49,064 bases of DNA, taken from IMG/VR virus record IMGVR_UViG_3300045988_163663. One strand, written 5' to 3'. The position numbers and the translations under genes are program-made. The notes below the pieces were generated by a model. That model was not told the DNA's origin. It saw only the letters and a program-made list of their open reading frames with translations, and made no database searches. Source of the stretch: a virus. Shown one piece after another: positions 2,948-40,550 of the stretch (position 1 is the stretch's first letter; each line of letters starts with the position of its first letter).

Positions 2948-2978
2948 AAGGGGAAGTAATTACTTCCCCTTATTTTTA
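2948..2978. terminator. Bidirectional rho-independent terminator
   Basis: Perfect hairpin aaggggaagt/acttcccctt (2948-2971) with a 4-nt loop. It is flanked by an A-run upstream and a T-run downstream, and lies between convergent genes. Confidence 0.7.
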
Positions 2979-9732: not shown

Positions 9733-12700
9733 TTATACTCTTGTTAAAGCTTCATTTGTTGTAATCGACATATTTCCATTATAAGTTAAAGGAAGAGTAT
9801 ATTGAGTTATAACAAATTCCCCTTGTATATTACTTTTTCTATCATTTATATAGATTAAATTATTAGGTTCTAAATAATATCTTGGCGCACAGTTAATAGT
9901 AACAGTTAAATTATAAATTAAATACTAATATAACATTTCTCTTATATAATCAAATGCCGTACTTCCTGTTCCGCTAGAACTAAATAATTTCATTTGCCCC
10001 GGTTTTAAAGCACAATAAGCCTAACCTTTTAATGTATAATCTTCTATCTTTTGAATTAAATCTGCTTCCCCAGTATTTTCAAAAAATATGATATCAGGCA
10101 CTTCTAATTTATATAAAAGACTCATATTAGTTTTAGTCAATGCTTTAGTACGCCGGCCTATTTTATTAACTGAATATCTAGATACTAACTAATCTACATC
10201 AATAAAATCTAACCAATATGTTATTAAGCTAGGATCAAGATAAATAGCAGGATTCCATCCAATCCAAGTATCAGGTATGATTTCTTCATTTTGATTTTCT
10301 TCAGAAGAATTTTTTGATTCAATCTAATCAATTTGATTCCGCCATTCTTCATGCCAAGTTTCATTCTAAGGATTAAATATTTGTTTACGCCACAAGTATT
10401 CACCATCTATTTTAGCTAATAATTCATCATCATAGTCTCCTTTTTGAGAACCATTTTCATTATTTAATAAAGCTTGTCTAAATAATTCTTCACGCCATTC
10501 ATTGCAAGGAGTACCAATTAAAGTAAAATAAAAATTATCTTCATAATCAAAAGGTGGTTCTTCAGGAGTATATGTAATAATTTTAATTTTATTATTATCA
10601 TTAATAGTAGAAAAATCAAGAATGTTAGAATTATAAGCTTTAGTAATTTCTTCAATAATTTCATTTAATGAATAATTACCATCATCACGTAAAATAAAAA
10701 TTTTCTTTATTATATCTTCCTAATCACCTAAAATTTTTAACTAATTTTTTTTACCATCTACTGGATCTAAAAATGGTAATAATAAATTACTTCCTCCTGA
10801 TGTATTTCCATTTGATGTATTGTTTTTATTGTTATTCTCTTCATTGGGCTTTAACGTAAAACCTGGATCTAAAACATCTAAGGGCATAATTCCATAATTT
10901 GGATCTCTAGGAGTAGGACCAGGTATATTATTATCTTCTGAATTGCCAGGTTTATTTGGTTTAGATGGATCATCTTTAGGAATTTCTTCTATATTTTTAT
11001 AACTATAAATTAATTCAATATCTGAAGTTAAATCATCTTTATTTGTTTTATAGTATTCTAATAATTTTTTAATTAAATCGTTATGTTCTTCTTCAGTAAT
11101 AACAATTTCATCATTCTTATTTTTTATTGCCGGATAATTATTAGGAAATACATAATTATATTCCGTTTTCTTTTTAGATTCATTATAACTAATTAATTTA
11201 TAACTAGCAACAATAGTATTATTTATGGAAATTAAATTATTAGAATCAATAAAATTAAAATCATAATCCTTATTTTCTTCATCAAAATTTATATCTTTAA
11301 TAATCTTAATATAATAATTAATTTTAATTGTATTTAAAAAATTTTCTATGTTTCTTAATGAAAGTTCTTCGGTTAATTCACAAATCTAAATCCACTAACC
11401 TTCACTATCATAATAACCTAAAATATTTTTATTATCTATATTTTTTATTATAGTTAAATAATATTCTTTAGATTCATTAATCGTTGTATTATTATTATTA
11501 TTATCAGACTTATCATTAGAAGAATTATTATTTTTATTTGCATTATTTTCTTGGTCTGCTGGTAACATAAAATCAGGATCTAATACTGTGGAACCTGGAT
11601 TTGGTACCATAAAACCTGGATCTAACTCTTTTGTATTAGATATTAGCATAATACCATAATTTTCTGAATCTCCAGTTCCTTGGCCTTTACGCCACCAAGA
11701 GGTAGGAATACCAAAACCCGGATCTAATGTATTATCATCTTTATAGCTATCATTTTTATTATTATTATTTTTATTAGAAGAATTATTATTACTTGGCCAA
11801 CTATCAGTAGCATCTTTTTTAGGATAAACACCAAGAGCTAAATGAGTAAAGTCAATAATATCAGTTAAATCTTCAAGATATTGAAATCCTATAATTTCTC
11901 CATCTAATAAAGTAATTTTATAATATCTTATCTAATTTAAAAATATTATTTTATAATATAAAATAAACTAATCACCAGTGTAAAAAGAATAATTCTTTAA
12001 AATATTTTCAATTATATCTTCTTTAATGTTAGATTCAATTACTTCATCCACCATTTCTTCATGATTAACAGAATAAATAATTTCTAAAGCTTTTTTATCA
12101 GGTGTCTAATTATAATTACTTTTTTTATACTCAAATAAATAAAAAGCATGGTCACCATTACCTCGAACTACATCCCACATATATTGATTAGCTAAATCAA
12201 TTTGAGGTTTTTCATCTATGGCTAAATGATACTATATAGTTTTAGTAACTCCATTACTATTAGTTTTATCGCCCCATACAATAAAATCATTTTTTATATT
12301 TTCATATTTAGGACTATTATAATAAGATAATGCATCTTTAGCATTTGCAAAAGTATAATAATATTTACTATCTGAAAAAGCTTTTATATAATAAGTATCA
12401 TTTATTTCTGTAATAGGAGTATAATAATAGTTTAAATAATTCTTTTTCTACTAAAATACAAAATGACCATCTAAATCATAAAAATATTCATAATTTCCTA
12501 AAGATTCAATAATTTTATCAAGGACAGAAGTTACTGTGTCTCCCGCAGAAAATACTAATTCTCCTGGATAAGTAAAATCTGTTTCTTGATATCCTACGTC
12601 TTGTCCATAAATAAATTTGTGCTATAAAAAATTTTCATCTTCAGGAGCGTTTTCACTAATTACAAAACTTTTATAATCTTTAGAAAACCATATAGGATTT

Positions 12701-13332
12701 TGGCCCATATATTTTGTACTAAGTTTAGCTGTTATATCTACGTCATTAATTATAACATTCTATTCTGGTTCTTTACCAAAATGTGTTACACATTCTTTAA
12801 TAATCGTAAATATAGGCACTTGCTCAATTGTAATATCTCCATTTTCATCTTCATATTGTGTTTCATGAAAGGTAACTGCTGAAGATAATGTACCTCCGCA
12901 AGTACCATCAAGCATACACATTTTATCTTTACCTGAGATAGAAATATTTGCTGAAGAAGCTGTAGTAGAAGAAGTAGCTTGATTAATTACAAATGTTCCA
13001 AGAGGAAACCAAATAATATCTCCATAGTTTTTATAATCTGCAAATGGATTTTCAAGCCCTACCTCTACTTTTACTTTTTTATTAATTGAAATAATATTTT
13101 CAATATTATTAATGTCATTCTCATTTTCTATACCGCTAATTGTTAGACTAATCGTGCGGCGCAAGGCGGCAGACCCATTAACTGTAATAGAGCCTGCCGT
13201 TGCTATACCCTATACCTCTCGTATAGGTTTTTCATCAACAAAAGATAAAATGGTAAGTTTGATATAATGTTTTTTTATACGCATTTCATCTAATGCAGTT
13301 AAAAACTCACTATCTTTTAGATATTCTCTCAT
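9733..13332 (-). CDS. Giant tail/baseplate protein, ~1199 aa
   Basis: ATG at 13332 with an AGGAGA ribosome-binding site, overlapping the upstream TGA (ATGA). Every codon of this frame from 9736 to 12760 was checked. There is no TAA/TGA, about 17 TAGs, and a TAA stop at 9733-9735. Track ORFs 12760-13164 and 11395-11649 are fragments of it. Confidence 0.55.
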
Positions 13333-16837: not shown

Positions 16838-16868
16838 AAAAAAGAATGATGGATAAAAATCCATCATT
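16838..16868 (-). terminator. Rho-independent terminator (minus-strand orientation)
   Basis: Hairpin gaatgatgga-taaaaa-tccatcattc, followed on the minus strand by a U9 run. It overlaps the TGA stop (16864-16866) of the upstream gene. Confidence 0.65.
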
Positions 16869-19800
16869 CTTCAATATACCAATCACGTAATTTTATATTT
16901 TTAGGAGCAATATAATCAGATAACTATTGTTTTAAATCAGCATTTGTAGCTATCTCATTTAGCAATTTAGCTACTGTTAAAATATTAGTCACACTTTCTT
17001 CTTTTAACTAAATAGAACCATCAACATTAAAGCATAAAGCATCTCCTGCTAATTTTACAACTCCATCAGAACGCAAAATATTAGTAGGAATACCATCCAT
17101 ATCATATTGATATAATCCTGAAACAAATCCTGAACTATCTGATTCTTCTATTGGTGTTTCTTCAGCTTCTAAACTCAATGTCTAAATTTCTAAATCTTTT
17201 CCCGGATCTTCGATAGGCAAAGTATATTTTCTACGCTTGTTTTCCCATAAAGAACCTACATAAGTTTTGCCTTCATCTCGTGCCCAAGGTCTACCATGAG
17301 AAAATCCTGGGTCAAGAGGTTTTTCAGATTCTACAGTATCTTCATCAAGCACAGGTATATTAGTACCATCATTATCTTCATCTGTTATAATAGTAATATC
17401 TTTATTATTAAGCATTACTATTGGATAAAATAAACTGCCCTTATTATCTGGTAAAAAAATCTATAACGCACCCATAGGAACAGTCTTTACTTGGTCAGTA
17501 GATTTAGCAAAATAAGCACCTGGATAATTTTCTTGTGGTCTAAGGTATTGCTATTTTACATTATCAGAATTAGTAGAATTAACTATAATTATATAATCAG
17601 TAAGAGACACTGGATTAGTAACCTATAATAAATCAATAAATTTTTTACCATCATATTTATACATAAAAGAAATCTATTTATTTATTAAAGAAGGAGTTCC
17701 CTTCTCATTATAAGTAATTTTAGAAGGTATATTAATATTACCAATGCTATTAACTACAAAATTAGTACTAACCATTATAGGCTTATAATAATATAAAGTC
17801 TAATTTGTAATAGCTTTATTTTCTAACCCTATAGTTACTTTAAATTTTATAAAATACTAACCCTTACAATCTTCAACTGGATTTGAAATTTTAAATACAT
17901 TTTTTTCTTTATTTACTTTTTCACAATCTAAATTAATAGGGTCTGCTTCAACAGTTATTTTATATTTATCTGTGGTGTTACCAACGGCATCCTAATAAGC
18001 AGAACCATTTATTATTTTATTACCATTATATCTTACTTCTGGCATGAGATAAATTGGTTCATAATCAGACCCACTTTTTTTATTAATAGGTTTAGTGTCA
18101 AGTTCACTGCCATCAGCATTGCAATCTTTAATAATTAATTGATAATCTAAACCACTAACTGTTGAGTCACCTGGTTTAATAAAAACAATACTTTTATTAA
18201 ACTTAAATTCTTTATCAGCTAATGTTATTACTTTTAATGATAAGGTATTATTAGTATAAGTATCTACATATTTAGGTTTAATATAATAATGTAAAGCATT
18301 ATTAGTTTTATCTATCCAAAGCTTTGAAAGCATTGAATTAGTAATTTTAGTAGTAGGGTATTCTAAAAGTTCTCCTCCATCGGGTGAATACCAAGTAACA
18401 CTTTTAACTCCTATATTTTCTTTATCTACGCTAATAGTTGGAGTAATAATTATTTCTTTATTAGCCTAATCTAAAGAAATACTACCATTATCATCATACT
18501 AAAAAGTATCTGTTCCACTAAATACTACTCGTACAGGCGATTCTTGTTTATAAGTAATTAATTTATATTCGCAAGGTACATAATCACCAGTATCTAATTT
18601 ACTAACACTATAAAATATTACATTACCATATTCTAAAAACTAACTTACATCAATCTAACTAACTCCAGTAGATAAAGGTAAATATGATCCATCCATCAAA
18701 TCAACATACCAATCAGCTTCATTAATAGTTTCTAATGAATCTACAATAGATAATTTAACTTCATTTTCACTAATAAATTGCGGAATTATAGTAAATCGTT
18801 CATTATAATATTTAACTACTCTAACATCTTTATATAAAGTAACATTAGAATTATATACTACCACTAATTTATATCGCATCTATTGATATACATCTTTGCC
18901 CGAAATAGTTAGTTCATTAAATCTTACATTAGAACTATCATTAATACATTCCCACCCAGGGCCGCCTATCTAATCATATTTTTCACTACCAGATAGAACT
19001 GCCGGATTCTATTTATACCAATAACATTTGCAAGTTTTTTCTTCTAATATATTCTTATTAGCATAATAAAAAACACCTATTAATTTTATTTTATCGGTAT
19101 CTTGAATTAATGATAAACCCTATGGCGCACTAATACCTACATAATATAAATCTTTAGTAGAATCTTGGACATCAACAAAACTAAGTTTTATATTTTTAAC
19201 AAAAAGATTAGGCTCTTTATCATAAACCGCAGTTATCTCACCTTTGCCGTTAAAAACAGTATCATATCTTAAAAATCTTTCTTGAAAAAATGTAATTTTT
19301 TTTATGCCAATTAAATTAATTCCAGTTAAATCATAAATTACATACTATGGTGAAAATACTTCATAATCGTAAATACTACCAGAGAAATTTATAATATCTA
19401 ATCTACGACTAAAAACAATACCTGTATCTTTTTCTACAAAATCAATTTTTAATCCATAATTACCAGCCATCATTGTTCCATAAAACTATGTTCTAAAATC
19501 GGCCTAAATCATAATACGAGGATAAGTAGTTAATAAACTAGTAAAAATTACATCTTCAGTGAGATTATCATTTTCATAAATTACCTATTCATAATATTTA
19601 CTTTTATCTTCTTCCTCTTCTATCGGTTCTTTACTATCTTCAGCCTAAGTATCAGTTGCAGTACCTTCTTCTGTATCATTTGATGAATTATTTTTATCAT
19701 CTTTTGGAGTTTCTTCTTCTTCCTTTTTAGGTTCTGGTGCATAAGCTAAGATACCATATTCATTACCATTACTATATATTTCACTTATTTCGACTACTTG

Positions 19801-20160
19801 CTAAGATAAATCACTATATTCTTCTTCTGTATAAGAAGTAGCAGATGCTTTGCCTTCAATAGTTTTTTTTTGAGTAAAATCACCGCCTGGTACTTTTACA
19901 TATACATTAGTTCCTTTAGAATATACATAAGTTAATGTAGTTGGGGCATAAGCACGAAATTTCCCTTTTTGATATTCAACAAAATATTCTCCAGTACTGG
20001 CATCGTTTAGACTTATAACTTCAGCAATTATAGTTTTATCAAATGATAATTCAGCATCACGTGCCCGTGCTATATAATCTATAGTCTCTAATAAGGCATC
20101 TGTTATTTCTTTTGGCTTTTTTATAGTAGCTAAATATTCTTCTTTTCTATTATAAGCCAT
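16864..20160 (-). CDS. Large distal tail protein (Dit/Tal-like position, directly after the tape measure), ~1098 aa
   Basis: AAAGGAG ribosome-binding site then ATG at 20160. Frame checked codon by codon from 16921 to 19801: no TAA/TGA, many TAGs. Track ORFs 19801-20160, 18655-18879, 17992-18333 and 17182-17415 are its fragments. TGA stop at 16864-16866. Confidence 0.55.
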
Positions 20161-20182: not shown

Positions 20183-20213
20183 AAATGAGGAGGAAATTAA
20201 TCCTCCTCATTTA
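20183..20213. other. Perfect 12-bp hairpin between tape measure and next gene
   Basis: aaatgaggagga-ttaatt-tcctcctcattt. It overlaps the tape-measure stop (TGA 20207-20209) and precedes the ribosome-binding site of the next gene. Confidence 0.5.
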
Positions 20214-23200
20214 GATTTATTTGCACTTATATATTGAGCCGCATTATTACTAAGATTAGACAATGCTTCTTCAATTTCATAATGATCAGTAACTCCTGGG
20301 AAGTCTGCTTGAATAGTAACTTCTTGCTTAATTGGCTAAGTTTCATAAACAGGTGGAGTAGTTTTATCAATCAAATTACCTAATTTTATCTATCCAAAAT
20401 TAATCATTGATTGTACTTGTTTATCAACCCAATCATTCATATTACGAACAATATCAACTGCACGAAGTATATTAGAAGTATCTTTTTGGTTAAGAATTAA
20501 TTCTTTAGGATGGACTTTAATAATTCTACCATTATCAGGTCCGAAACCTTGTCCTTTAGCCCAATTGCCTGTATAGGCACCAGAAGCTGCACCATTTCCT
20601 AAAACTTTATCTAACCATTCTGCATTTTTATTAGTTGTAATTTCTTTCTTTTCTTCTTCAGACCAATAATCAGTAGAAGAACCATTCTTTAAAATCTATG
20701 AACCTTCCTATTCCATATCAGATAATTTTAAATTACGGATATCTTTCAAAGTTTTGATGTCATCAGTAGTCCAAGTACGGCCACTTTCATCTGTATAAGT
20801 ACCACCATTTTTACTTAAAGAAATTATAGCAGCACTATAATCAACACCAATATCATAAGTTAATCCGCCGCTACCACTACTACCAAAGTTACCATCAATA
20901 TACTATTCATTTTTAGCTAATTCTTCATCAGTTCGCTTAGAATATTTCTATTCCCAATCAAGAACCATTCCAATAGACTAAGAAATATAGCCCATTAATA
21001 CATTAACAAGTTCTTCAATTTCATCACATAATTTTTGAATATGTTCTTCAAGACTATCAAGAGTGCCGCCCATATCAGAACCGAAAGTTTCCCAAGATGT
21101 ACCAGCAACGTTCATTGCTGCTTCAACAACTTTTTGCCAATCTTTATAATTGGTTTGTAATTCACTAATTGTAGTATTAGAATTATTAACAAATAACATA
21201 TAAGCATCATTATAATCATACAAATCAGTCATTTGGCCGTAGAGAGTATCATGGAATGTTAATCCACTATTTACAACACCTTTATTTAATTCATCAAGTA
21301 AATATCTTTGTCTTTCAACATAATACTCTTGCAATGATAATAGCTGATTTGAATAATCCGCAGAGTTTTTATCAAGATCTTGTAAGGCTTCTTTAAAATC
21401 AATTTGATTCTAAATTAACTATTCACTTACATCATTAATATAATCCTTACTTAACTTACCTAATTCATGAACCGCATCTTCATATTTCTATGTGGCGTCT
21501 TCAATTTTTTCTTCATCTGCATCATAAGCATAAGTCCAGTTACCCGCGGCATCACGCACTAAACGCATTGAAGTTTTAGAATTTTGTTGCTCCATAAGAG
21601 CTATTTCAGCAAGTTGTAAGTCATATTTCTTCTATAAATACTCAAGGTCATATTGGCTCATCTAGACGCCATCGGCCTGGAGATCGTGAATCTCTTGCTA
21701 AATGTCTCTAAGTTTTTGTTTAGCTAAAAGGTCATTAGTATCAGCCAGCTATAAATTTAGCTAACGATTTAATTTATTTAATTCATATAAGCGTTCGGCA
21801 TCATCAAGATATTCTTCATTGATAGTCTTTGCTTTTTCATATTTATCTTGGAAATCTTCAAGAGTTTCAAACGGCGATAACGCATTACTTAATACATTAA
21901 CAGCCATCTCAACACGCATTTCAAATAAATCTTGAGCAGCTTCAAGGGTTTCTTCCCAAGAAGCTAAAAATTCATCAGAAGCTTTTTCAGTTTCTTGTTT
22001 TAATACTTCAACTTGATTCTCCCAGAATTTTACAGAAGATGTGTCACCATCAGCCTAACGATCAGCAAGGGCAGCCTATGCTTCTTTAGTTGCTTTAGCC
22101 AAACCATCCATTTGCGCTTTTAAAGATTTCATTTTACCTAACATTGTTTCTACTTTAGTAGCACCAATCTAAGTTTTTAATCCCATATCAAGCATTGAAC
22201 GACCAGACAAATCAATAATATTATTAAGATGGTCAAGCATTGATGTATAAGTATCAAGACGTTCTATCTACTTATCAATTTCATCAAGAGCCAAGTCTAG
22301 AACATTCTAAACCAAATCTTCAATATCATTACGTAAATCTAGAATAGCCTCATTAACGTCAATCAAATCACTTTGGTATTCAAGTATTTGTTCATCGAAC
22401 ATCTACTCATAACCTGGGTGTCTAGCTTTTGCAGCATTTAACTCATCAATACCCTAACGTAATGTAGCACCTTTATCAAAAAGCTATAACATCTCTTGTT
22501 CTTGATAAGCAAATCCTTCAAGCATTGCTTCAATAGTTTGTTTATTACCATGAGCCTATTTAAGAAGTTTTTCTTGATAATAATTAAGACGTTTAATCTA
22601 AAAATCAATCTACTTAACTTTCCAATCAATTTGCTTTGTAATAGCTTCTAGTTCAAGTTCAGCAGCTTCTTTCTCTTTTTGAGCAATAAGAGCGACATTT
22701 TCATCAATACGCTCTTGAATACCCATAGGGCCGTCAAGACCATCTTTAATTTTAGTAAACCATTCATTTAGGTCTTCTTCGCTCATACCATCTTCAAGAT
22801 TTTTTTGATATTGTGCCCAAACTTTGCCCCATAATTCAGAAGCATTAGCAATTTCACCATCATCAGTAAGTTTTATTTCAAACTCTGGATGGTCTTTATT
22901 AAATTCTTCTACTTTAAGTTTTAATAATTTTTTCCAAGATTTAATCTAATCTTCAAGAATGTCCTGCTCTTCTTCTAATAATTTTATTTCTTCTTGAATA
23001 TATTTAGCTGAGTCTTCTGGATTAGCTCCCTCACGTAAAGCTTCAAGACGATCACGTTTCTTTTCTTTAGTTTTTAACAATTCATCTTGAATTTCTTTAC
23101 CAATATCATTAGCGGATTTAGATTCAGAACCTCCTCCTCCACCGCCACCTTTATTATTGCCATTTTCGGTAGTTAAATATTTCCCACCATCACCTTTAGT

Positions 23201-26200
23201 GACTAAAGAACCTTCAGAAGCTACACTTATAGTATCTCCGATAGTTCTTTTAAGTTCAGCAATTCTAGCTGGATCAGCATTAGTTGGGTCTTTCATAATT
23301 TCTGCTATTTCCTAAAAAGCATTAAATAAAATCTATAATTGAGAAGTATTAAAATGGATACCAACTTGTCCCATAGCATTAATATAGCCGCACATCTCTT
23401 CAATAGTTCCGCCAAGAGGAGCAAGAGCAGCTAATGCCTAAGAAGCATCTGCAGTAATTCTACCATCAACTACAAATCCATCATTCTAAGATAAAAGATT
23501 AGTTATTTCATTTAATTTTGCCTAAGCAGCAGTCTATAAAGCTGAAAAATCTAATTTCCCAGCAGATTCATTTATTTGCTAAACTAACTAATCATCTAAT
23601 TTACCAAATAATTCAAGGAATTGTCCGGCTAAAGCAGCTTCATCATCATTACCCCATAAAAATTTTTCTACTAAAGGCTAGTTAACTTCATAATCTGATT
23701 CAGATAAATTAAATAAATCTTTAACACTTTGTTTTAAATCATTTTCAACTTCAGTGGTGTCTTCGCCTTCTTCACGGAGTTCTTTATACTATGTTTTTAA
23801 TTCACTTATACCTTTAACAGCTTCTCTAATTTCATTATCTCGTAAAGTATTATAGAATTTTTCTGTCGCTTTTTCTACAGCATTAGTGTCTTCACCAGCT
23901 AATTCTAATTCACGATTATATTGATTTAAAGCCTCAGTATTTCCTTCAATATCTTGATTATTAGTAGCCCAAGTGTGTAATCCATTTTGACTAGCTTCAT
24001 CTGCATAATCAAAACCAGTCATTTCACTCATTTCTTTTACTGAATTAGCATTAGTATAAGCATTAGTTCTTAATAAATCAGCATTGTATGCTCCATCAAT
24101 ATTAGCCATATAAGCATCTATTATTCCTTGAATAATATTTGCTTGATCAGAAGAACTTAAATTTTTATAATAATCTAAATCATAGTTACCTACTTCATCA
24201 GTACCAACTAATTTCGCAATTTCTTCAGGGCTACCAAAAATATCTAACATTTGTTGCATATAACGGCCTCGAACATCTGTAAAATTCCCAGCTGCCATAG
24301 CTGCTAAATTATTATCATAATCCTATCCATTAATGCGTATTCTAGTGCCTAAATTAAACTAATCATTCCAATTATCCTAAGCAGTTTCGGCAACATTATG
24401 CTATTCTTCCGCTCTGTCTATTCCGGCCTAAATTAAAGCATTTTTATCTTTAGTATCAAAATCCTTAACTTTTATATATTCATCTGGACCAGTCTAAACA
24501 TAATAATCTTCAGAATTTAATCCAGCTGCTTTAAGTCCTTTAGTAATTTCATCATACTTTTCTTTAGTAATAGAACTGCCAACATCTTGACCCATTAAAT
24601 CAAAAATTTCGATTAATAAATCTCTAAAAGTAGTAAAATCTTCTATAGGCAATTTATTAGCAGTTTCTTGCATCATATCATAGAAGCCTTTCCAAGCTCC
24701 TTCATCATCTGATACAACAATGCCTAAATCTTCTAGGGTATCAATAAATTCTTCCCAAGTTCCAGAAGACCAATCAAAATCAGCTATTTTATTTAACTAA
24801 TCAAAAGTTAAATCTTTTCCTACTGTATTAATTGCTTCGGTAAACGCAACAACCCCATTTTTTCCTGCCACTTTAAATATGTCTTCTGCAATCTAAGAAA
24901 TACGAGATTTTAATGAAACACTATATCCTTCAAATTCATCAATTGCTTTTGATATATCATCTTCATCTTCAAGCCCTAATATATATTTAAATGCTTTATT
25001 ATTACTTATATCTTCAATATTAGCAATCTAATGCGATGCTTCTTCTACTATAGCTTCGCCTAATTCTTTACCGCTAGTTACGCCTAATTCTTTCATCATA
25101 TTAGACATATATGATTTTACGGTTTCTTGCTATTCAGGTTTTAATAAATTAAAATCTTCGCCAAATAAACTCTATCCAATTAAGTTCTGTAAATCTTCAT
25201 CTTCAAAACCTTTTTCTATATCTATTTTTAACTATTTAAGCTAATCTTGAGTAAAATTGCTTAAATCGCCATCATTACCAAAAAATTCTAAAATACCTTG
25301 GCCTATAGTTCCTTGATTACTCATACCAGTCTAGAATTTTTGAGCCATAGCATAAGTAGTCTAAAGTTCTTCTCCCATAGCCTACATAGTAGCTATTGTA
25401 GTAGCAACTTCTGAGAATAATATAGTTTTTCCATTCTCTAATTGGAATGATCTATTCTAACCTTCACCAATTACAGAATTTTTCTAATTTAATTTATATT
25501 CGCTATCATTTTTATCAATTTTAGCCGCTGCTAAATAAGCATCCCATAAATTACGTAAAGCTTGATCTCCTTTACCAGCTCCACCAGCATTTTCATCGTG
25601 AGTTCCTATTTCTCGGTCCTTATCAGTTCCGTCATCCCAACTAATAGTTCCATTGTCATTATAAAAGCTATCTTTAATAGCTTCAATATTAGCATCTACC
25701 AAAGCCGTAGTTATTTTAGCATCTTCAGTAGACATAGTATCTAATCCAAGAGCCTATTGAACTGAAGCTTCTTTCGTAGCCTATAATGTAGCATCAGTAT
25801 TATTTTGTATTACTTTTGAAACATTAGATATAGCAGCTTGAACATCATCAGTACTAAATTTATCTGCTAAGGACTAAGCATAAAGATTTAATAATTCTTC
25901 ATCAGTTTTTTCATTACTTCCATTAGTTACAGAATAATTATTATCAATAAGTAATTGTTTAATTGCTTCAGTTAAATCTTGGCCTGTTCTATTATTTAAT
26001 TCATTCTAATTATTCAAAAGTAAATTAAGAGTATCTGCATAAGAGGCACCAGTTCCATCATTTTTTAATAAGGTACCTTTAGTAGTAACTGAAGAAGAAG
26101 CTGTTAAAAAATTACTAGTTAAATTCTACTTAGCTTTTTCAATATTTAAGTCTTCTAAATTACTTTGTTCATTAGCTAAAGCATATTGCTATTGAAGAAT

Positions 26201-29200
26201 CTATTTATCATAAATAGACTACAATTTATCAACTGCATTTTTATCTATCCAAATTTCACCAGTATCTTTCTTACCCCAAGCCCCTTCCATATCTTTTAAC
26301 TCAGGATAAGTATTTAAAATATTAAGAGCTTCTTCATTAGCTTTAGCTAACTATTCACGCCATTCTTTAGTACCAACAGTACATTCATCTAAAGCGGATT
26401 TAACAGAACTATAATTATTAAATACTGATTTTAGCTATTCAGCTTTATTTTTTGTTTCTTCTAACTATGATTTAAAACTTTCAATAGCTTTTTCTGACCG
26501 TTCAATTTGAGCATCTAATGAATAACTTTCAGCAGCTTTATAAGCTTTAACTAAAAGCCATACAACAGCTACTACTGCCGCAATCGCTGCTGCATATTTT
26601 GCAAATATAAGAACTGATTTACCTAACATAGCACTTAATGCGGCACCACTACCCTAAGCGTCAACTTGTGCTTTTGCTTGATTTCTAAGCTAAGCATAAA
26701 CTTCATTAGATATATTTTTAACACCAGTAGTATTTTTATAATCAGCTTTTAATTTATTTAGTTGTGCTTTAATAAGTTTATTATACTCTTCTTCAAAATT
26801 TTGAGTATCTTTAATTCCTAAATTAGCAGAAAAAGCATTAAATCCACTCTAAAGAATTCTTCCCTTTTTTGTATTACTAAAGCCTGAACCGCCAGATTTT
26901 ATTTTTTCCTAAAATGCTTCTCCTAACTAAGTACCATCCATACCAGTAGCAATAGAAATAATATTAGTCCCTAAGCCACCAGCATTTTTAACTATAGCCT
27001 AAATTCCAGAATTTAAAGATTTAAAACCATTAACTAAAGAAGGTAAAGCTATACTCGCAGACATTATTCCTGAACTTAATTTTTCACCAAAATTTAAATC
27101 ATCATTAGATAATGTTTCAAGCAATCCTTTAAAACTGGTTACTCCTATACTAAATTGGCTTATACCCTAAACTGTAGTAACTAATCCGTTAGAAAAATTA
27201 CTAATAGCTCCTTGGCTTTTTGCCAAAGTTTTCTAAAAATCATTTATTGAATCTGTGTATTTTTTATTAGCATTATTACTTTGTATTAAAGCTTCTTTTT
27301 CTTTTACATAGCCATTTAAACATTGCCGTAATGCTTCAATCTATTTTTTAGTAGCTCCATCAGCACTAACTTTACCATTTACATATTTATCTAAAACAAC
27401 ATTAACATCTTTTAAATTATTTATTTCTTCTATAATCTAATTTCTATATCGAGACTAAAGGCTACTATTAGAGCCATTAGCCGCTTTTTTTGCATTATTT
27501 ATTAACTAATTTAATGTATTAAATCTCTAATCAGTGTCCAACCCTTTAATATTATTAAATTTAGCTAAAAAATTCTAATAAGAATCGCTCTTATCAAATT
27601 TCTAAGAATTTAACTATTTTAAAACTTTATTACTATAAAATTGATCAATTAATTTTTGTCCAGCTTTATAACTTTTATTAAAATACTTTACTCCCGCATC
27701 TCCACCAAAATTTTCATTAGTAGTAAGAAAAATCTAATTTCTTGCATCTCGTAAACTATCCTAAGTCTATTGTTGCTAAACTTCAATACTTTTCTTAGCC
27801 TATATAGCAATATCTCCATAAGCCTAAGAAATTTTTAACAAAGTCTAAAGTCTTAATTTATCTGTTTCATTTAATTGGCTATTAGCTATCTATAAATCAT
27901 ATGAAGCCTAAGCCGCATTAATCATTGTAGTAGTTTCTAAAGTAACAGAACCCTAATCACTTAATGCTAATTTAGATTCAGGAGAAAAAGATTGTAAAGT
28001 CTGAATCATTGTTTTTTTCATAATTGCAGCCTAATTTTCAGCAGCTCCGCTATCAATAAACAAATTGGAAGCCATACGCTGCATATTATTTACAATATCA
28101 GGACCGAAGCTCTTTAACATTAAAGTAGAAATAACACTTAATACGCCAGGTAATCCGCCTAATGAATCAATTAATTTACTTGTAATATTTAATGTATCAC
28201 TTAATGTATCATTTAATCCAATAAAGAATTTATCATTAACTAATTGTTTATAAATTTCTTCAAGAGAAGCTTGTACTCGCTTTTTAGAAGCTTCCCAACT
28301 CTCAGCAAAAATATCAGCTTGTTCTTGTAAAGTACCTTTAGAATTTTTAGCTACTCCAACTAACTCTTTAAAATAATCTTTATTTTCCATAAGATTAACT
28401 AATTGAGTATATTGACGGACACCACCAACAGTCTATGCAAGGGCAACCTATTCAGCACGACTTAAACTATCCCACTTATTCATCATTTCATCAAGGATAG
28501 TATTCATATCTTTTAACTCGCCCTATTGGTCTTTAATACTAATACCAACTTTTTCAAGGGCTTTAGAATATTTATTTAAATCAGTACCATCTTCAAGAGT
28601 CTCTCCAAGAGTCAGACCCTAAATACGAGCGAATAAGGTTTTAAGGCTATTACCTACTGTATTCGCACTTTCACGTGTTTTGGCAGTTAATGTAGCCAAT
28701 GCAGATGTAGCATATTCATAACTAAGACCAATAGTATTAGCAACAGACGCGAATTTCTATATACCTTCTGAAATTTCATCAGTACTAGAAGCAGTATAAG
28801 CACCTAGTTTAGTCATTACATCAGCATAATATTCCAGAGATTTGCTGCCATCATAGAAATTATTCCAAACAGCAGTTAACTAATCAGATACTTTAGATGC
28901 ACTTTCACCCGCGGCGTTAGCCATTTTAATAGTAACTTCAGTGCGATCAGCAACTTCTTTGTCACTTAAACCCTATTGATAATAAATTAAAGAAGCATTA
29001 GTATAATTAGTAGTAGTTGTACTTAATGCTTGAGCAGCCTTATTCGCCTTTTCAGCAAACTCAGCCATCTAATCATTGCTCTATCCAGTAACTATACGGA
29101 TATCATTTAATGATCTATTTAAATCTTCTGCATAGTAATAAGCTTTCTATAGAGACCCCTATACCCCATGCATTAAATTAGATGAAATTTGCCATTTGGC

Positions 29201-29638
29201 TGTATTAGCTAATGTCTTTTTAAAATTATCTAATATAGCGTTAGTTCTTTTTAAAGGAACTTCAGCATTAATAACAGACTATGCTAATGCAACAAATGCT
29301 TTATCGCCTGTCGGGCCTAGATTCTCTAAATGTGTAGCAAAATCCTAAAGAGTATAACCGCTCTGGCTTAAACTCTTTGAAAATTTTGATAAATCTAAAC
29401 GTCCAGTATTAACATTAGTCGCCTAATCTAAAGCAATTTTTAACTCCTAAACTGCTGCCGAGGCTTCATCTATTTCTTTTTTAGTGGCATTAACATCAAA
29501 AAATTTAATATTTTTTGTTGCTATCTAATTCATTAAAGTATCTAATGAACTTTGTAAATCACGTAATTGCTATTTAGCTTGGCCTGTATCAGCCGTAAAT
29601 CGCATATTAACATTATAATTAGCACTGTTATTAGCCAT
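20207..29638 (-). CDS. Tail tape measure protein, ~3143 aa
   Basis: AAAGGAG ribosome-binding site then ATG at 29638. Six track fragments spanning 9.4 kb (28031-28390, 25484-25735, 24494-24676, 23789-24298, 22946-23296, 20978-21334) all fall in the same frame. It is Ala/Gln/Leu-rich and coiled-coil, with a Gly-rich segment GGGGGGGSESKS and a transmembrane-like stretch GKSVLIFAKYAAAIAAVVAVVWLLV. TGA stop at 20207-20209. Confidence 0.6.
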
Positions 29639-29685
29639 AAAATAGCTCCTTTCTCTCATTATAAATTTCTATATACAAAGAAAAA

Positions 29686-29712
29686 GCGAGAGGAACAAAG
29701 CCTCTCGCCTTT
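29686..29712 (-). terminator. Rho-independent terminator/attenuator between the chaperone-like gene and the tape measure
   Basis: Hairpin gcgagagg-aacaaag-cctctcgc. A U-rich tract follows on the minus strand (ttttctttg), and a T-rich tract follows on the plus strand as well. Confidence 0.55.
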
Positions 29713-29750
29713 TAATATTCCTATCTAAATTAGAAATCAATTATGATATT

Positions 29751-30164
29751 TTAACCCATCTTGGTTAAAATATCTTTTACTAAAGATAGACTTTCAGGAT
29801 TAGAAATCTTATCTTGTAATTCATTAACATCTAAATTTAAATTAGAATAATTCTGATTCATAGTATCCATAATCCCATAAACACTATTATGATATTTATA
29901 ATATCCATTAAGCATTTCATAAGTATAGACTTCTAAATCATCAGTTTGATTACAATTTACTTGTTTCTTTAACTCTTTTATAAACCTTGAACCAACAAGT
30001 AAATCATAAAGTTTATACAAATCTTCTTTCTGTTTATCAGTAAAAGATAAATTTGTATAATTAAATACTATTGCTAAATCCATATACATATGGAAAGCAA
30101 ATTCATTCAAAAATTCATTATTAAAATCAATGACTTGTTGAATGACCGACTAAGCAATATCCAT
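29751..30164 (-). CDS. Tail assembly chaperone-like protein (by position upstream of the tape measure); start is ATG 30164 or GTG 30278
   Basis: Track ORF 29751-30110 extends upstream through TAG 30150. A GGAAGTGAG ribosome-binding site sits before GTG 30278. TAA stop at 29751. Function is assigned by synteny only. Confidence 0.4.
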
Positions 30165-30331: not shown

Positions 30332-31714
30332 TTAATTTTTATCCTTTATAAATATATTATAACAAAAAAAATTTCCAAAGTCAAAAAATTTTTTTTACTA
30401 ATCTTCAAAAATTTTACTGAAATTCATACTAATAGGACCATATAGAGCTTGCTCCATAGACATTCTTCTTTCATCATTTTCTAAAATACTTCTAGAACCT
30501 TGTTTTTTATTAAAATATAAATTCATTTCTATATCTTCTGCTAATTTAGCTGTTGATAAAACTTTTAAAAAACCTTGCTTTTTAGGATTATTAATAACTA
30601 AAAATTTAGTACGACCAATATCATTAATAAAATTAGCCATTACACTCTAATAAGCATACTTAGTATTTCCAACTTGTTGTTTAGCACCAGTCAATTCATA
30701 AATAGCTCTAATTCTAAAAAACATTTTAGGCACATCATTATGTTCTGCTAATTTAGAATGCTTTGCCATACAATTTAACATACGAGCATATCTATATAAT
30801 TTATAACCTGTATCTCCATCAGCCACAGTTAAAAAAACACGATAAGGATTAGTTTTACCTAAACCTATAAAATCTGTTGATAAATAATTTTTATCGCTGA
30901 ATGTAGCCATCGATAAGGCATTAACTACTTGATTTAACAGTGTCGCTGTAGCAGTAATTGAAATACTATAATTTAAACCAGTGTTATCAGCTTTTATCTA
31001 TTTGCCCTAAATAGCTCCAACTCGACCATTTTTTTTAACTTGAGTATAAATAGTAGTAGCTTCTAAATTATTTTTTCGACGTTCAGTTGTAGTATTACCT
31101 GAATCTTTTTTTTCCTATCCAACTTTATAAATAAACCGAGACAAATTATTTATTGCAGTTTTTGTAGTGCTATCTATAAACTCTCCACCAATATTAGTAA
31201 TTAAATTTTTCATATTAATATTATCAACTAATTGGCCAGACCGATGAGTCTACGGTAAAGGACCATAAGGCATTTCCATATTCTAAAAAGTATAGTCAAT
31301 AGTAGTAATAAATTCATTCATAAAATTCTCTAATAAGGCACCACGTTCATAGCTATTTGCTCCTTTTTTAATTAAACCTCCTCCAATAAATAATCCAGGA
31401 TTTACCGTATATAACTAATTAAGTAATTCAGCTAAAGCCTAATCCTAAACAATCTCTATTAAAGATTCAGCAGAAAAAGACATTTTTTTAGTATAATTAT
31501 TTTGAATCTACTTTATTCCATTTAAAACTTTTTCTAATAATTTAGCATCCTAAACTTCTTTATTAGCAATTGTATCATTTGGTCGAGCAGCAGCTCTATA
31601 TACTTCTAAAAGACTACTTAAATAAGTAGGAGTATTTACTTCATTTTTATAAGAAACTCCTTTTTGTTTATAATAAACTAACTAATTTTTCTAGGCATTT
31701 GTTAATTTTGCCAT
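30332..31714 (-). CDS. Tail structural protein, ~440 aa (ends at TAG 30398 or, if read through, at TAA 30332)
   Basis: AAAAAGGAGAT ribosome-binding site then ATG at 31714. Track ORFs 30647-30910 and 30398-30640 are in one frame, joined by TAG 30647. Many in-frame TAGs lie upstream. The 22-codon extension beyond TAG 30398 is low-complexity, so termination may occur at that TAG. Confidence 0.45.
30356..30384 (-). promoter_or_regulatory. Consensus sigma-A-type promoter driving the tail operon
   Basis: Minus strand reads TTGACT-17 bp-TATAAT with a TGn extended -10 (TTGACTTTGGAAATTTTTTTTGTTATAAT). It is 27/29 identical to the promoter at 46781-46809. Confidence 0.6.
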
Positions 31715-31924: not shown

Positions 31925-33016
31925 TTAAATATCAAAATAGCTGTCATGCATCGGATCATGGATAGTTTGAGTACGATAGACACTATCATTATCAATATCT
32001 TCAATGACCTGAACAGCAGCCAATACTTTCTTAGTAGGATTGAAACGAGTAGTTCCTGGGAAAGCATCAAGTGTGAAAGTGAAAGTTGCAGGATCGCCAG
32101 TAGCAGCCATACTGAAAGTAAAGTTAGACTGAATCTTGCAGTTAGGAATTATAAATTCGGCAGGAAGATCAACACCATCCTGAGTACGGAATAAGGTAGA
32201 AGCTTCAAGATAGAAGTTGCCACCAAAAGATTCAGCGGTAATTTCAATTTGACGAGCATTGCTAGCCTTCTCAATATAATAATCAAGAAGAACAACAGAA
32301 TCTTTAAATAATTCTAATTTATGTACTGCATTAGCTTCAGCTTCATCAACAATCTTATAAGCAGAAGTAATTTCCTTAATCTAAAGACCATAATAAATCT
32401 AAGTACCAGCTTTAGCCTTAGTATCAGCTTCTGCATCAGTACAAGTCTTATACTTCATTTCAGTTTCATCAAAATAGAACTTTTGAGGTTTCGCAACTGC
32501 CCCCGCCTCAGTTTGACGAATAACTGTAGGAAGATAAGGCTCAGTTACTGGTTCATCATTGTCAACACGCATAGCATAAATATAATATTCACCTTTATGA
32601 GCACCCGTGGTAGTATCAATTTGTTCATATGGTAAATTTTTAATAAAAATTTGTACACTATCCTTATCTTCAGAGAGAGCCACAGCAGTAGTCTTTTCAG
32701 TTACATGTTGCTTAATTGTATTCTGTTTAGAAGCATCAATAAGGCCAGCTCCAGCAAGAATCATGAAACCTTCTGCAGAAATAAGAGCATCTTCCATAGT
32801 GAATGTTAAAGTACGGTCACCGTCCCAAGCTACTAAACGAGCATTGCCGCGTCCGCCTTGTGCATATACGGTCGTAGAAGCACCTTCAAGGCTAGAAGTT
32901 TTTAATGTATCGAAATAAAGAACTGGTTCGTTCGCATAGAAAACTTTATTACCAACCTTCATAGGAGCACGAGCTTTTAATACGACATCGCATATTTCAC
33001 GAACACCAAATTTCAT
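31925..33016 (-). CDS. Major tail protein-like, ~363 aa
   Basis: AGGAGG ribosome-binding site then ATG at 33016. Track ORF 32399-33016 continues through TAG 32399 and TAG 32381 into ORF 31925-32110 in the same frame. TAA stop at 31925. The product is beta-rich. Confidence 0.5.
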
Positions 33017-36349: not shown

Positions 36350-36916
36350 TTAACCTTCTTTTACAACGTTATAACGAGGAGCAGTTCTACGACCAGGAGG
36401 CGTTGTAGGCTTAGTTTCAGTCTTCACTCTACGTTCAGGAGCTTTTGGAGTAATCTGTTCATCCTCCGCAGCTTCAGCTTCCTTATTAGCTAATGCTCTA
36501 TCAAGGTCAAATCCAGTCTTATCCTTAAGAGCTTTACGCTTATTATAATCACTCATAGGAAGAGATACAGCATAGCTCTTAATCATATCAATAACTCCAA
36601 TAGGAGCAAAATCAAGACAATCAAGGAATTCATCAAGAGTTCCCTCAGTAAGAAGTTTAATAACTCCAGCATCATCTAAATAATATTCAGGTTCTGTATG
36701 AATACCTAATTCTTCTGTAGTTTTAGTATCTACAATTTTTAAGAAATTTTCCATCAAGGTGCGGCCTCCGCTAAGGTAAGCAAGCTTTTCTAATTCTTCA
36801 AAAGGAATTTTTTTAGTTTCACCAGGTGTAAATTCTCTACGGATGCCTTCTTCAGGAATAGTATAAACAACCATTCCAGCACTTCTATTAGTAACTAATA
36901 AAACTTTTTTATTCAT
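36350..36916 (-). CDS. Head-associated protein with an Ala/Glu/Pro-rich C-terminus, 188 aa
   Basis: AAAGGAG ribosome-binding site then ATG at 36916 (internal Met of the track ORF). No in-frame TAG. TAA stop. Confidence 0.45.
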   Translation of the reverse strand: MNKKVLLVTNRSAGMVVYTIPEEGIRREFTPGETKKIPFEELEKLAYLSGGRTLMENFLKIVDTKTTEELGIHTEPEYYLDDAGVIKLLTEGTLDEFLDCLDFAPIGVIDMIKSYAVSLPMSDYNKRKALKDKTGFDLDRALANKEAEAAEDEQITPKAPERRVKTETKPTTPPGRRTAPRYNVVKEG

Positions 36917-36950
36917 TTTTTTTATTCTCCTTTTACTCATAAAACAAAAT

Positions 36951-36985
36951 AGGGGAGAAGGGGATTTCCCCATTCTCCCCTAAAA
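36951..36985 (-). terminator. Strong rho-independent terminator after the capsid gene
   Basis: Nested GC-rich hairpin aggggagaa-ggggatttcccc-attctcccct, followed on the minus strand by a U-rich run. Confidence 0.7.
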
Positions 36986-37016
36986 ATATTATATATTAAT
37001 TTTTAGTTAATATCAA

Positions 37017-38153
37017 TTACGGCTTATCTTCATTACCGCCATCAATAGTATCATGAGAACCAGTAATTTGACCAGCATAGTCACGGACCTTACCAGTTAC
37101 ACCATCAAGATGCCAGGTCTTCATATCACCAAGAAGTTCAGTATCACAATAGCAGCAGATATTATTAGCTAACATAGCAATAACGCCAACCTTCTTATAA
37201 ACTTGAATTTCACGGCTACGGTCATAATTGGTGTATTCATCAACAATGGTATTGCCTTCCATAGCAACCTTTACAGGCTTACTATCAGCACCAGTAGGAA
37301 TAATCCAAGCATAGCCTGGGTCAATGACTTTCTTTTCATTGGTAGCATCTTCAAAGCCCTGCTCAAGAATAACAACTTTATAGCCCTTATAGGAAGCAAG
37401 ACGGCCAGTATTCCAAAGCTCATTTTTCATAGCTTCAGTATAACGCCAAGCATCCTTCGGAATCATACGAACAGCAAATTCATAAGTGCAATAAATAGTA
37501 GGAGTACCATAAGCAGAAGCAATCATAAGTAACTTATCAAAACCGGGTTCATCAAAACCATTAGCAACTAAACGGTTAGCAGGAGGTAACTGGTTAACAG
37601 AAGCCTTTAAAGCACCGGCAATTTCTTTATAGATAAGTTCATCCATACCTTCCATGACGATCTGGGTAACAACACCAAAATCGACACGGCCATCAAGGAA
37701 TTCCTCAAAGCCAATTTGAGCAGCTCCGCCGATAGCGCTTGTACGGACTTCAAAGCTTTCTTCAGTCTTACCAAGCTTGAATACTTCATAGATACCAGCT
37801 AGGCCGACACGAGTGATGAATTGCTTTGCACGAGTATTGTTGCTGAACTTTCTACGGAAAATAGGCTTGTCACCCTGTTTAAACGTCTTAACTTCAGCAA
37901 ACTGATTATATTGCTCTTCAACTTTCTTAGGAAGAACTTCATCAATAGTTTCCTCAATCATTGAGAAAATAAGGTTCTTATTATCACGATATAAAGAATA
38001 AGTTCCAGCAAGTTCATTTAATTCTCTGCGGAGAGTTTCATTAAGAGCATCATAAGAAAGGCTTTCGCCATTAAAGCTGTAAGCAGTAGGAGTAGAAGGA
38101 TCAGCCTTAGCGACAGTCTTCATTAATTGAACAAGATTTTTTCTATCTAACAT
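37017..38153 (-). CDS. Major capsid protein (HK97-fold type), 378 aa
   Basis: AAAGGAGAG ribosome-binding site then ATG. Intact ORF with no TAG and a TAA stop. It lies downstream of the scaffold and upstream of a strong terminator. The product is globular and beta-rich. Confidence 0.6.
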   Translation of the reverse strand: MLDRKNLVQLMKTVAKADPSTPTAYSFNGESLSYDALNETLRRELNELAGTYSLYRDNKNLIFSMIEETIDEVLPKKVEEQYNQFAEVKTFKQGDKPIFRRKFSNNTRAKQFITRVGLAGIYEVFKLGKTEESFEVRTSAIGGAAQIGFEEFLDGRVDFGVVTQIVMEGMDELIYKEIAGALKASVNQLPPANRLVANGFDEPGFDKLLMIASAYGTPTIYCTYEFAVRMIPKDAWRYTEAMKNELWNTGRLASYKGYKVVILEQGFEDATNEKKVIDPGYAWIIPTGADSKPVKVAMEGNTIVDEYTNYDRSREIQVYKKVGVIAMLANNICCYCDTELLGDMKTWHLDGVTGKVRDYAGQITGSHDTIDGGNEDKP

Positions 38154-38170
38154 TTTTCTTCTCTCCTTTC

Positions 38171-38947
38171 TTACGCGATTCGCATAATCTTAACGCCCTT
38201 CTGATGATCAGGCATTTCATAAACCTTGACAACCTACCACTGGATAGAACCATCACCGGTCTTAGAAAGCATACCGTCAGCAGCACGAGGACTTAAAATA
38301 TCACCAACTACAAGAGTAGCTTCGGCAATAGTATTAGTCGTAAAAATATCACCAACATTGGTCTTGAAAACACGAGGAACCATATTAGTGCCAGCAGGCA
38401 TTCTACGGGCCTCATAAGGACCATCAAAATGTAAAGGATCTTCTTCATAGAAGAGTTCACGAATATCAGGACCAGCAGTAACATCATCATATTCATAAGT
38501 ATGTTGTACACCCTGACTATCTGTAATAGTCATAGAAGTATTACCTTCGGCATCCTTACCATTTAAATAGCGAGCCTGACGTGTACCAATTTCCTGCTTG
38601 CCATCATAGGGGCTGTAATAACGAGCTTGATAATCATCTTTGCGCATAGCAAATTCGCAATCAGCTTGTTCCTCACGATAAAGTTTAATTTCATTATAAA
38701 CTAACATCCATTCGCCCTTGCCAGTGAAATCAACTTCACCAAGCTCACCAGCAGCATAGTCATACTTAACAAACTGGCCATTTTCAAGAAGCTGGATATT
38801 TCTGTTAGCAGGTAATTGAGCATAAATCTGACCAGTGCGTTGAGCACTTAAATGATTAGGCTCAACCTGACCATAGCCATATTCAACGTAGCCGCCCTTA
38901 ACAGCAGATACGCCGCTTAGGTCTTTAAGCATATCTTTTAAAAGCAT
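38171..38947 (-). CDS. Head protein (decoration or second capsid component?), 237 aa plus a possible 19-aa read-through extension
   Basis: AAGGAGG ribosome-binding site and ATG at 38947. The ORF ends at TAG 38234. If that TAG is read, it continues to TAA at 38171. Confidence 0.4.
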
Positions 38948-38971
38948 TAGGTTTTCCTCCTTAAAAATTTA

Positions 38972-40537: not shown

Positions 40538-40550
40538 TATAAATCCTCCT

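Follow-up and report, generated by a model that had tools for sequence, protein, structure and literature searches.

A probable 3,143-residue tape measure protein, apparently encoded with TAG as glutamine, in a large putative siphovirus of the human gut

We analyzed a 49,064-nucleotide (nt) stretch of viral DNA, the IMG/VR record IMGVR_UViG_3300045988_163663 (hereinafter the window, taken at its full length), and found that a single 9.4-kb frame on its minus strand very probably codes for the tail length tape measure protein of a large (~189 kb), putative human-gut siphovirus that uses TAG as a glutamine codon and carries a head-tail module of the SPbeta/Tsamsa/phAss-1 type. The gene and its ribosome-binding site (RBS) are placed as follows:

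20207..29638, minus strand: tape measure protein gene, recognized from stop counts, matches to PF10145, TIGR01760 and PHROG families, an identical public protein, and the reading of TAG as Gln
29646..29657, minus strand: RBS GAGAGAAAGGAG, 7 nt ahead of the ATG at 29638 and invariant in four relatives

An initial annotation of this DNA had proposed a single frame running from an RBS-preceded ATG to a TGA stop, and careful retranslation agrees with it: from 29638 to 20207 there are 3,143 sense codons and a terminal TGA, with GAGAGAAAGGAG lying 7 nt before the ATG, 110 in-frame TAG codons and not a single internal TAA or TGA. Since the two other frames of the same interval contain 151 and 525 TAA and TGA codons, the openness of this one cannot be a matter of chance. 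Under the standard code the region falls apart into open reading frames (ORFs) of at most 169 amino acids (aa). Another in-frame ATG (29659) precedes the RBS; the gene calls in public records start at 29638 and give the same 3,143-aa product. The RBS motif recurs at 20177-20166, ahead of the next gene (start 20160).

The identity of the product as a tape measure, likewise put forward in the initial annotation, emerges from profile searches with the translation in which TAG is read as Q. These recovered PF10145 (97.5 bits; cut-off 33.2) and TIGR01760 (114.2 bits; cut-off 28.8), both above their curated thresholds, together with ten PHROG families, every one of which is annotated as tape measure (best E-value 1.9e-42). 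Matches to the tape measure include the Lactococcus phages PhiL47, AM4 and AM5. Further, the gene is placed after the tail tube gene and ahead of the distal tail genes, all of them on the minus strand.

The reading of TAG as glutamine, on which the frame depends, finds support at several levels. Over the entire window, ORFs that reach 100 aa span 20.9 kb under the standard code versus 55.2 kb when TAG is taken as sense, and treating TGA as sense adds little ORF coverage. Four relatives with tape measures 74-90% identical to the one in the window were aligned with it at the DNA level, codon column by codon column. At the TAG positions of the window the relatives most often show TAG; CAA comes next, CAG or GAA after that, and other codons are rare. 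In the opposite direction, a relative has TAG at 17 of the 28 CAG positions and at 57 of the 381 CAA positions of the window tape measure, as against 0-6% at AAG, GAG, TAT, TAC, TTG, TCG and TGG positions. For a control free of any assumption about Q, the TAG codons of the terminase were masked as X and the protein was aligned to three non-recoded homologues (Geobacillus E3, Enterococcus VRE9_4 and Alicyclobacillus KKP_3916); the masked columns hold Gln in 14 of 33 homologue cells, and three of them fall on motifs with an invariant Gln in those homologues, namely FFYQR, KSQIY and EDQxIK. Thus, both the codon exchange among the relatives and the invariant Gln positions of the terminase homologues bear out the proposal that TAG must be read as Gln, and the codon patterns indicate translation table 15 for this phage. 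In the tape measure itself TAG makes up about half of the Gln codons (110 TAG, 96 CAA and 7 CAG).

The use of TAG is uneven along the window. Four capsid-module genes within 36350-40174 on the minus strand (207, 378, 258 and 400 aa) contain 0, 0, 1 and 1 TAG, respectively, and the tube gene (31925-33016) contains 2, whereas in the majority of the other late genes TAG accounts for roughly every second Gln codon. The TAG-poor capsid and tube genes have a G+C content of 0.36-0.41 versus 0.25-0.31 elsewhere, with the exception of the 400-aa gene (38972-40174) at 0.31. The avoidance of TAG in what are probably the most abundant virion proteins suggests that codons dependent on suppression are selected against where expression is high. 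At both ends of the window the plus strand (257-2937 and 47113-48999) carries genes that are largely TAG-free and divergent from the late module.

Given the metagenomic origin of the DNA, we also considered whether the length of the frame could be an artefact of assembly or the outcome of an internal duplication, and rejected this possibility, as the gene shows no repeats and its protein recurs in many assemblies. The check for tandem duplication suggested along with the initial annotation found neither tandem nor dispersed repeats (Tandem Repeats Finder and repeat searches), the only short matches being at the level expected by chance. The exact 3,143-aa protein is present in two database clusters, on contigs of 188-190 kb. 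Record names of public contigs with the window sequence (OBRE15-1_SAMN03283284 and aot2015-SM40_SRR1761717_Peru) suggest that the phage stems from gut metagenomes of a human cohort in Peru. A wider set of relatives, the best 120 homologues, are 74-100% identical, come from many sequencing runs and are all full length. The five DNA copies that we examined are all open when TAG is sense, with 109-120 TAG codons, and all end in TGA. A megablast search with the tape measure gene found no near-identical DNA in the cultured or deposited phage collection.

The protein can be divided into the following regions:

28148..29137, minus strand: tape measure signature domain (aa 168-497 by TIGR01760, aa 199-406 by PF10145), within an N-terminal module of aa 1-500
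26528..26638, minus strand: transmembrane-like segment LSAMLGKSVLIFAKYAAAIAAVVAVVWLLVKAYKAAE, aa 1001-1037, with a Kyte-Doolittle peak of 2.27
23150..26101, minus strand: middle module, aa 1180-2163, clade-restricted, fast-evolving, helical and acidic, with no domain match
23129..23149, minus strand: poly-glycine run G7, aa 2164-2170, a likely flexible hinge
20894..23128, minus strand: long-helix block, aa 2171-2915, 96-99% conserved and 745 or 746 aa long in all relatives
20579..20893, minus strand: variable linker, aa 2916-3020, the site of an NlpC/P60 insertion in some relatives
20210..20578, minus strand: C-terminal end, aa 3021-3143, with the motif GAYTGxW...KVHPKELILN..DT

The N-terminal module is 98-100% conserved among 117 relatives, and its domain shares 23-32% identity with the tape measures of Enterococcus VRE9_3, PhiL47, Thrax5 and phAss-1. 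It is followed by a Gly-rich amphipathic stretch at about aa 800-1000 and then by the transmembrane-like segment; comparable hydrophobic segments are seen in PhiL47 (about aa 980-1125), Thrax5 (about 1055-1084) and phAss-1 (about 912). Both this segment and a glycine-rich linker had been predicted, and both were recovered, the latter as the G7 run, which is present as 5-8 G in 119 of the 120 relatives. The long-helix block is homologous to phAss-1 and partly to Enterococcus VRE9_3, and the C-terminal end, in which KVHPKE is found in 120 of the 120 relatives, aligns to the C-termini of the VRE9_3, PhiL47 and Thrax5 tape measures. Variation among the 117 relatives is concentrated in aa 600-1000, 1200-1300, 1700-2200 and 2900-3000.

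Structural predictions portray the protein as almost entirely helical and poor in proline (0.8%). In the AlphaFold2 (AF2) model of aa 2171-3143, near-continuous helices of up to 78 residues, as delineated by DSSP, extend to about aa 2915, and the model of aa 1180-2163 shows many shorter helices and few hairpins. Heptad periodicity is significant in 19 of the 73 segments scored along the sequence. The Ala/Gln-rich composition that had been attributed to the protein did not hold up: leucine is the most frequent residue at 10.0%, followed by A at 8.8%, E at 8.0%, K at 7.9%, D at 7.7%, N at 7.5% and Q at 6.8%. Beyond the tape measure domain, searches of Pfam, NCBIfam, PHROGs and PDB sequences found nothing credible, and Foldseek found no structure in PDB or BFVD that matches the aa 1180-2163 model at E <= 0.001; its top viral matches are minor-tail and tape-measure models with insignificant scores. 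We accordingly set aside as unlikely a cryptic enzyme in the ~2,600 residues outside the signature, which have no sequence match and, for aa 1180-2163 in a model of low confidence, no fold match; these domain and fold searches yield no evidence for a function other than that of a ruler.

The lengths of the relatives are more constrained than their sequences. The 117 relatives fall into two classes of 3,094-3,108 and 3,130-3,147 aa, or are the same with an added hydrolase insert of about 145 aa; the latter variants, with NlpC/P60 (PF00877), total 3,236-3,296 aa. These classes trace to two discrete polymorphisms: the stretch ahead of the transmembrane-like segment (aa 941-1000) is either 23 or 60 aa long, and the linker near residue 2977 is about 104 aa here versus about 246-253 aa in the NlpC/P60 relatives, the insert being absent from the window protein. 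The 984-aa middle module keeps to 970-994 aa across the relatives (within ~1.4%) while its identity drops to 37%. A search of 1.84 billion representatives with the middle segment (aa 1040-2163) gave a single full-length match, P0121, a mosaic protein of the same clade whose first ~1,100 aa are nearly identical, whose middle is 39% identical and whose total length is 3,145 aa. The other strong matches are TAG-split fragments of the same gene, and the weak ones span only the first ~150 residues after the transmembrane helix. Such turnover of sequence at a fixed length is what a molecular ruler would predict.

The neighborhood of the gene points to the type of virion that it serves. The genes that anchor it are:

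42704-44455, minus strand: terminase
40550-42241, minus strand: portal
31925..33016, minus strand: tail tube protein (YomU_Tube), 363 aa, upstream in one operon with the tape measure, with PF27173 on the identical public contig gene and a match to phrog_2729 (1.6e-53)
29751..30164, minus strand: 137-aa gene directly upstream of the tape measure, with no Pfam or PHROG match
16864..20160, minus strand: first distal tail gene downstream, 1,098 aa, with no family match

The full order on the minus strand is terminase, portal, capsid-module genes, tube, two unannotated genes (439 aa and 137 aa), the tape measure, and three distal tail genes of about 1,100-1,200 aa. An identical gene set is encoded on a public 188,486-bp contig, for which the precomputed Pfam assignments are YonD_N, YonB, YomW, YomV_2nd and YomU_Tube, a combination that by family content identifies an SPbeta-type siphovirus head-tail module. 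Our own Pfam scan (newest models 2025) gave no YomU_Tube match, and the tube label therefore combines the precomputed database assignment with phrog_2729. No sheath family was matched among the 19 neighboring proteins scanned. Hence, the family profiles, the SPbeta-type module, the YomU_Tube assignment and the want of a sheath match are together in keeping with the tape measure of a non-contractile tail that had been proposed. The listed relatives of the terminase include Geobacillus E3, several Enterococcus phages, SPbeta-like and Tsamsa-like phages and phAss-1, and Lactococcus phages as well.

The distal tail proteins are of 1,098, 1,142 and 1,199 aa. The position of the 1,098-aa protein suggests a Dit (distal tail) or hub-type component, and the 1,199-aa protein matches phrog_1887, annotated as 'tail protein'. 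Two of these proteins (16864-20160 and 9733-13332, minus strand) have in common an (L/V)DPGF motif placed in low-complexity Asn-rich linkers. The 1,098-aa protein has a single copy (PLDPGFSHG), and the 1,199-aa protein at least four (TLDPGFG, ELDPGFM, VLDPDFM and VLDPGFT). Between portal and terminase there is a 118-aa ORF (42259-42615, minus strand); homing endonuclease genes adjoin or lie inside the terminase gene in Enterococcus relatives, and by this precedent the ORF could be a candidate mobile endonuclease.

The tail that such a protein would specify can be gauged from phages with measured virions. In Tsamsa the tape measure is 3,123 aa long and the flexible tail 440 nm, the non-contractile tail of Lactococcus PhiL47 was measured at 480 nm and that of phage 949 at 500 nm, and Thermus P23-45 has a tape measure of 5,002 aa and an 800 nm tail. 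We obtained tape measure lengths of 3,275 aa for PhiL47, 3,149 aa for vB_BanS-Thrax5 and 2,673 aa for Enterococcus VRE9_3. The calibrations of 0.141 (Tsamsa) and 0.147 (PhiL47) nm per residue translate into 443-461 nm for 3,143 aa, and the rule of 0.15 nm per residue for tape measures into 471 nm, slightly above both. By analogy to these relatives, one may reasonably predict a tail of about 440-470 nm; of the initial figure of about 470 nm, a value of ~450-470 nm thus remains reasonable, and the 0.15 nm rule on which it was founded overshoots slightly. The accompanying description of the protein as exceptionally, and of the tail as unusually, long is contradicted by the comparable or greater lengths in Tsamsa, Thrax5, PhiL47, P23-45 and the TAG-recoded human-gut phages of the phAss-1 group, whose tape measures are of 3,149, 3,150 and 3,209 aa and whose authors regard the long tape measure ORF as typical of siphovirus morphology (PMC10607447). 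Tape measures and tails of such size are already known in cultured and metagenomic relatives.

Two hairpins flank the gene:

29681..29713, minus strand: terminator-type hairpin with a T-run, GGCGAGAGG-N7-CCTCTCGC, between the 137-aa gene and the tape measure start
20183..20212, minus strand: perfect 12-bp hairpin followed by Ts, AAATGAGGAGGA / TCCTCCTCATTT, overlapping the TGA at 20209-20207

The upstream hairpin, whose two arms and T-run occupy 29709-29681, has 13 pairs, 6 of them GC, and folds at -18.0 kcal/mol (z-score -4.9); the one at the stop folds at -19.3 kcal/mol (z-score -5.6). Both are kept in four relatives, and each stem has a compensatory pair change in the most diverged copy (L007), which in the upstream hairpin is G-C to A-T. 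The perfect hairpin over the stop had been noted correctly, being conserved and stable. Of the claim that a hairpin separates a chaperone-like gene from the tape measure, the hairpin itself stands, whereas the label given to the 137-aa gene finds no support: it has no family match, no -1 extension and no similarity to its Enterococcus counterpart. Terminator-type hairpins follow each transcription unit of the tail module (31772-31746, 29713-29681, 20212-20183 and 16872-16841), and a scan for such structures gave 12 sites in 18 kb versus 5.3 expected, with the four named folding at -18 to -19 kcal/mol.

In the stretch from the upstream hairpin to the start of the tape measure we also looked for a promoter; the one candidate, a TATAAT at 29664-29659 with a poor -35 only a few nt from the RBS, is unlikely to be functional. 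The best promoter-like site of the tail module is at 30356-30384 on the minus strand (TTGACT-17-TATAAT with an extended -10 TG; 11/12), where 230 nt separate the 439-aa gene from the 137-aa gene. Judging by its sequence, it could drive the 137-aa gene and, via read-through of the hairpin, the tape measure.

Based on the precedence of lambda gpH, TP901-1 and T5 pb2, we propose that a few copies of the tape measure would lie extended in the lumen of the tube, with the C-terminus anchored in the tail tip, and that the tube subunits would polymerize around the protein until its end is reached. Its length would thereby set that of the tail, here proposed to be ~440-470 nm. At infection, the protein would be ejected first, with the hydrophobic segment helping to form a conduit across the membrane. 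If the flanking hairpins act as partial terminators, they could keep this very large, low-copy protein expressed below the abundant tube protein, and the 110 TAG codons may tie its translation to a late, suppressor-competent state of the infected cell.

Several observations weigh against this account or temper parts of it. A canonical G/GT frameshift chaperone pair was looked for upstream and not found, as neither the 137-aa nor the 439-aa ORF has an overlapping -1 frame; both upstream proteins are without a recognizable family in Pfam and PHROG, and neither is similar to the genes at the same positions in Enterococcus phage VRE9_3. Such a pair belongs to the module and not to the protein itself, and the negative result lowers confidence only in the chaperone-like label. 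No suppressor tRNA was found in the window or in flanks of 10 kb on each side, taken from a sister contig (ERZ5855809 scaffold_9), and the same interval holds no tRNA gene of any kind, though every late gene depends on the decoding of TAG; a suppressor tRNA, if encoded by the phage, must sit in the other ~120 kb of the ~189-kb genome. Some recoded phages have been reported to be without a suppressor tRNA (PMC10607447). Similarity to known tape measures is limited to roughly the first 500-900 residues and to the C-terminal end; the ~1,000 residues in the middle are orphan. Both AF2 models are of low confidence, with a predicted local distance difference test (pLDDT) score of 51 for aa 2171-3143 and 58.5 for aa 1180-2163. 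As the middle is modeled as shorter helices instead of a continuous coiled coil, the nm-per-residue factor may be lower there. The tail length and the siphovirus morphotype are predicted from genes, and the terminator role of the hairpins is deduced from their sequence and conservation, which make a partial terminator or attenuator likely.

It is these properties of the middle that lend some substance to an alternative in which only part of the protein is a ruler, and the middle third (about aa 1180-2163) is an ejected cargo or effector, with the tail being shorter than the full length predicts. Relatives of the module are limited to the clade, its fast evolution has brought identity down to 37%, and it is modeled with shorter helices and a few hairpins in place of long coils. 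There are also precedents for tape measures with added domains, such as the RNA polymerase fused to that of P23-45 and the genuine NlpC/P60 enzyme insert of some relatives. However, neither Pfam, NCBIfam, PHROG and PDB-sequence searches nor the fold search linked it to an enzyme or another known domain, its confinement to 970-994 aa under wholesale replacement of sequence is what one would expect of a spacer or ruler and not of a catalytic domain, and the relatives with measured tails fit ~0.14-0.15 nm per residue over the full length of the protein. We consider this alternative unlikely. A related, more speculative thought, to which we accord a small chance, is that the middle ~1,000 aa are a host-specific ejected module swapped by recombination at strictly the same length, so that the tape measure would double as an effector or membrane-conduit cassette, or else that the 37-aa indel ahead of the transmembrane-like segment (23/60 aa) and the NlpC/P60 insert define functionally different tail variants within one phage species complex.

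The families that identify the protein do not by themselves specify the tail type, for myoviruses, too, have tape measures with PF10145 and TIGR01760, and some neighboring genes are unannotated. A contractile tail or a tailocin is nevertheless very improbable: the tube belongs to the SPbeta YomU_Tube family within a head-tail module made up of SPbeta-type families, none of the 19 neighboring proteins scanned matched a sheath family, and the related phages of documented morphology, Tsamsa and PhiL47, are siphoviruses. The presence of terminase, portal and capsid genes indicates a phage and not a tailocin. Finally, 110 TAG codons under the standard code in DNA of metagenomic origin might be taken to mean a chimeric or repeat-expanded frame, or an amber-interrupted gene that is never made full length. 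We give this hardly any credence in view of the lack of tandem or dispersed repeats, the recurrence of the identical protein in two clusters (on 188-190-kb contigs), the existence in many sequencing runs of over 100 full-length but diverged relatives, with DNA copies that are open with TAG as sense and end in TGA, the count of zero TAA and TGA in 3,143 codons against 151 and 525 in the other frames, and a substitution pattern indicative of selection on TAG as a Gln codon.

Taken as a tape measure, then, the protein does not change what is known of such proteins or of recoding, and it adds a gut lineage of ~189 kb to the known very long-tailed siphoviruses of the Firmicutes type; contigs of this size would place the phage among the larger siphovirus-type genomes. 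It also makes a clear case for translating recoded phage genomes with table 15, as the standard code breaks an essential gene of 9.4 kb into pieces of 169 aa or less. Moreover, the more than 100 natural variants, in which the middle third is replaced with its length held within ~1.4%, offer a ready-made test of the ruler model.

Among known systems, the phAss-1 group (the proposed genus Phassvirus; Babkin et al. 2023, PMC10607447; OQ749652) is likewise from the human gut and reads TAG as Gln. The phAss-1 tape measure, which we re-translated, is of 3,150 aa and has 110 TAG codons, the same number as the one described here. The two are collinear, with 32% identity in the N-terminal domain, 34% in the transmembrane region and 25% in the last ~800 aa, and phAss-1 too has glycine runs (GGGG..GGGG at aa 2066-2074; compare G7 at aa 2164-2170 here), but its middle third has no detectable similarity to that of the window protein. 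The terminases are 41.7% identical. phAss-1 encodes a DNA polymerase III (Pol III) alpha subunit, a ribonucleoside-triphosphate reductase activating protein and a dUTPase (PMC10607447), and comparable genes are present here on the sister contig, where Pol III alpha (1,275 aa), NrdD and its activase, a guanylate kinase and a weak dUTPase match are found upstream. Unlike our phage, phAss-1 has a genome of 133-136 kb, as against ~189 kb, and carries three suppressor tRNAs, none being seen here in ~69 kb (the 49-kb window and the 10-kb sister-contig flanks). Members of Phassvirus are 82-86% identical in nucleotide sequence, with genomes of ~133-136 kb (PMC10607447); we considered membership in this genus and rejected it, as there is no megablast match, the tape measure is only 25-34% identical at the amino acid level and the contigs are of ~189 kb, which places the phage as related but outside the genus.

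Further afield, the Bacillus phages vB_BanS-Tsamsa and Thrax5 represent a giant siphovirus type with related terminases and tape measures of 3,123 and 3,149 aa. The Thrax5 protein resembles the one described here in its N-terminal domain, its C-terminal motif and a hydrophobic segment around residue 1,060, but both phages use the standard code, their similarity of ~24% identity is confined to the terminal modules, and in Thrax5 a tyrosine-recombinase-like gene, not found here, lies directly upstream of the tape measure. The PhiL47/949 group shares the N-terminal domain and the C-terminal motif, and differs in its standard code, its genomes of 115-129 kb and the restriction of similarity to 23-40% identity in short blocks. 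In Thermus P23-45, too, the siphovirus tail is very long and its length is set by a giant tape measure, but the RNA polymerase in the N-terminal part of that protein has no equivalent here, such a domain having been detected neither by the sequence searches nor by the fold search of the middle model. SPbeta YomI, at ~2,285 aa a shorter protein, matches the N-terminal tape measure domain with 24.8% identity. Its gene, yomI, is annotated in GenBank as a putative transglycosylase/lytic transglycosylase, whereas no hydrolase domain was found in the window protein and its relatives have NlpC/P60 instead. With SPbeta the phage nevertheless has in common the capsid, neck and tube families, namely YonD_N, YonB, YomW, YomV_2nd and YomU_Tube.

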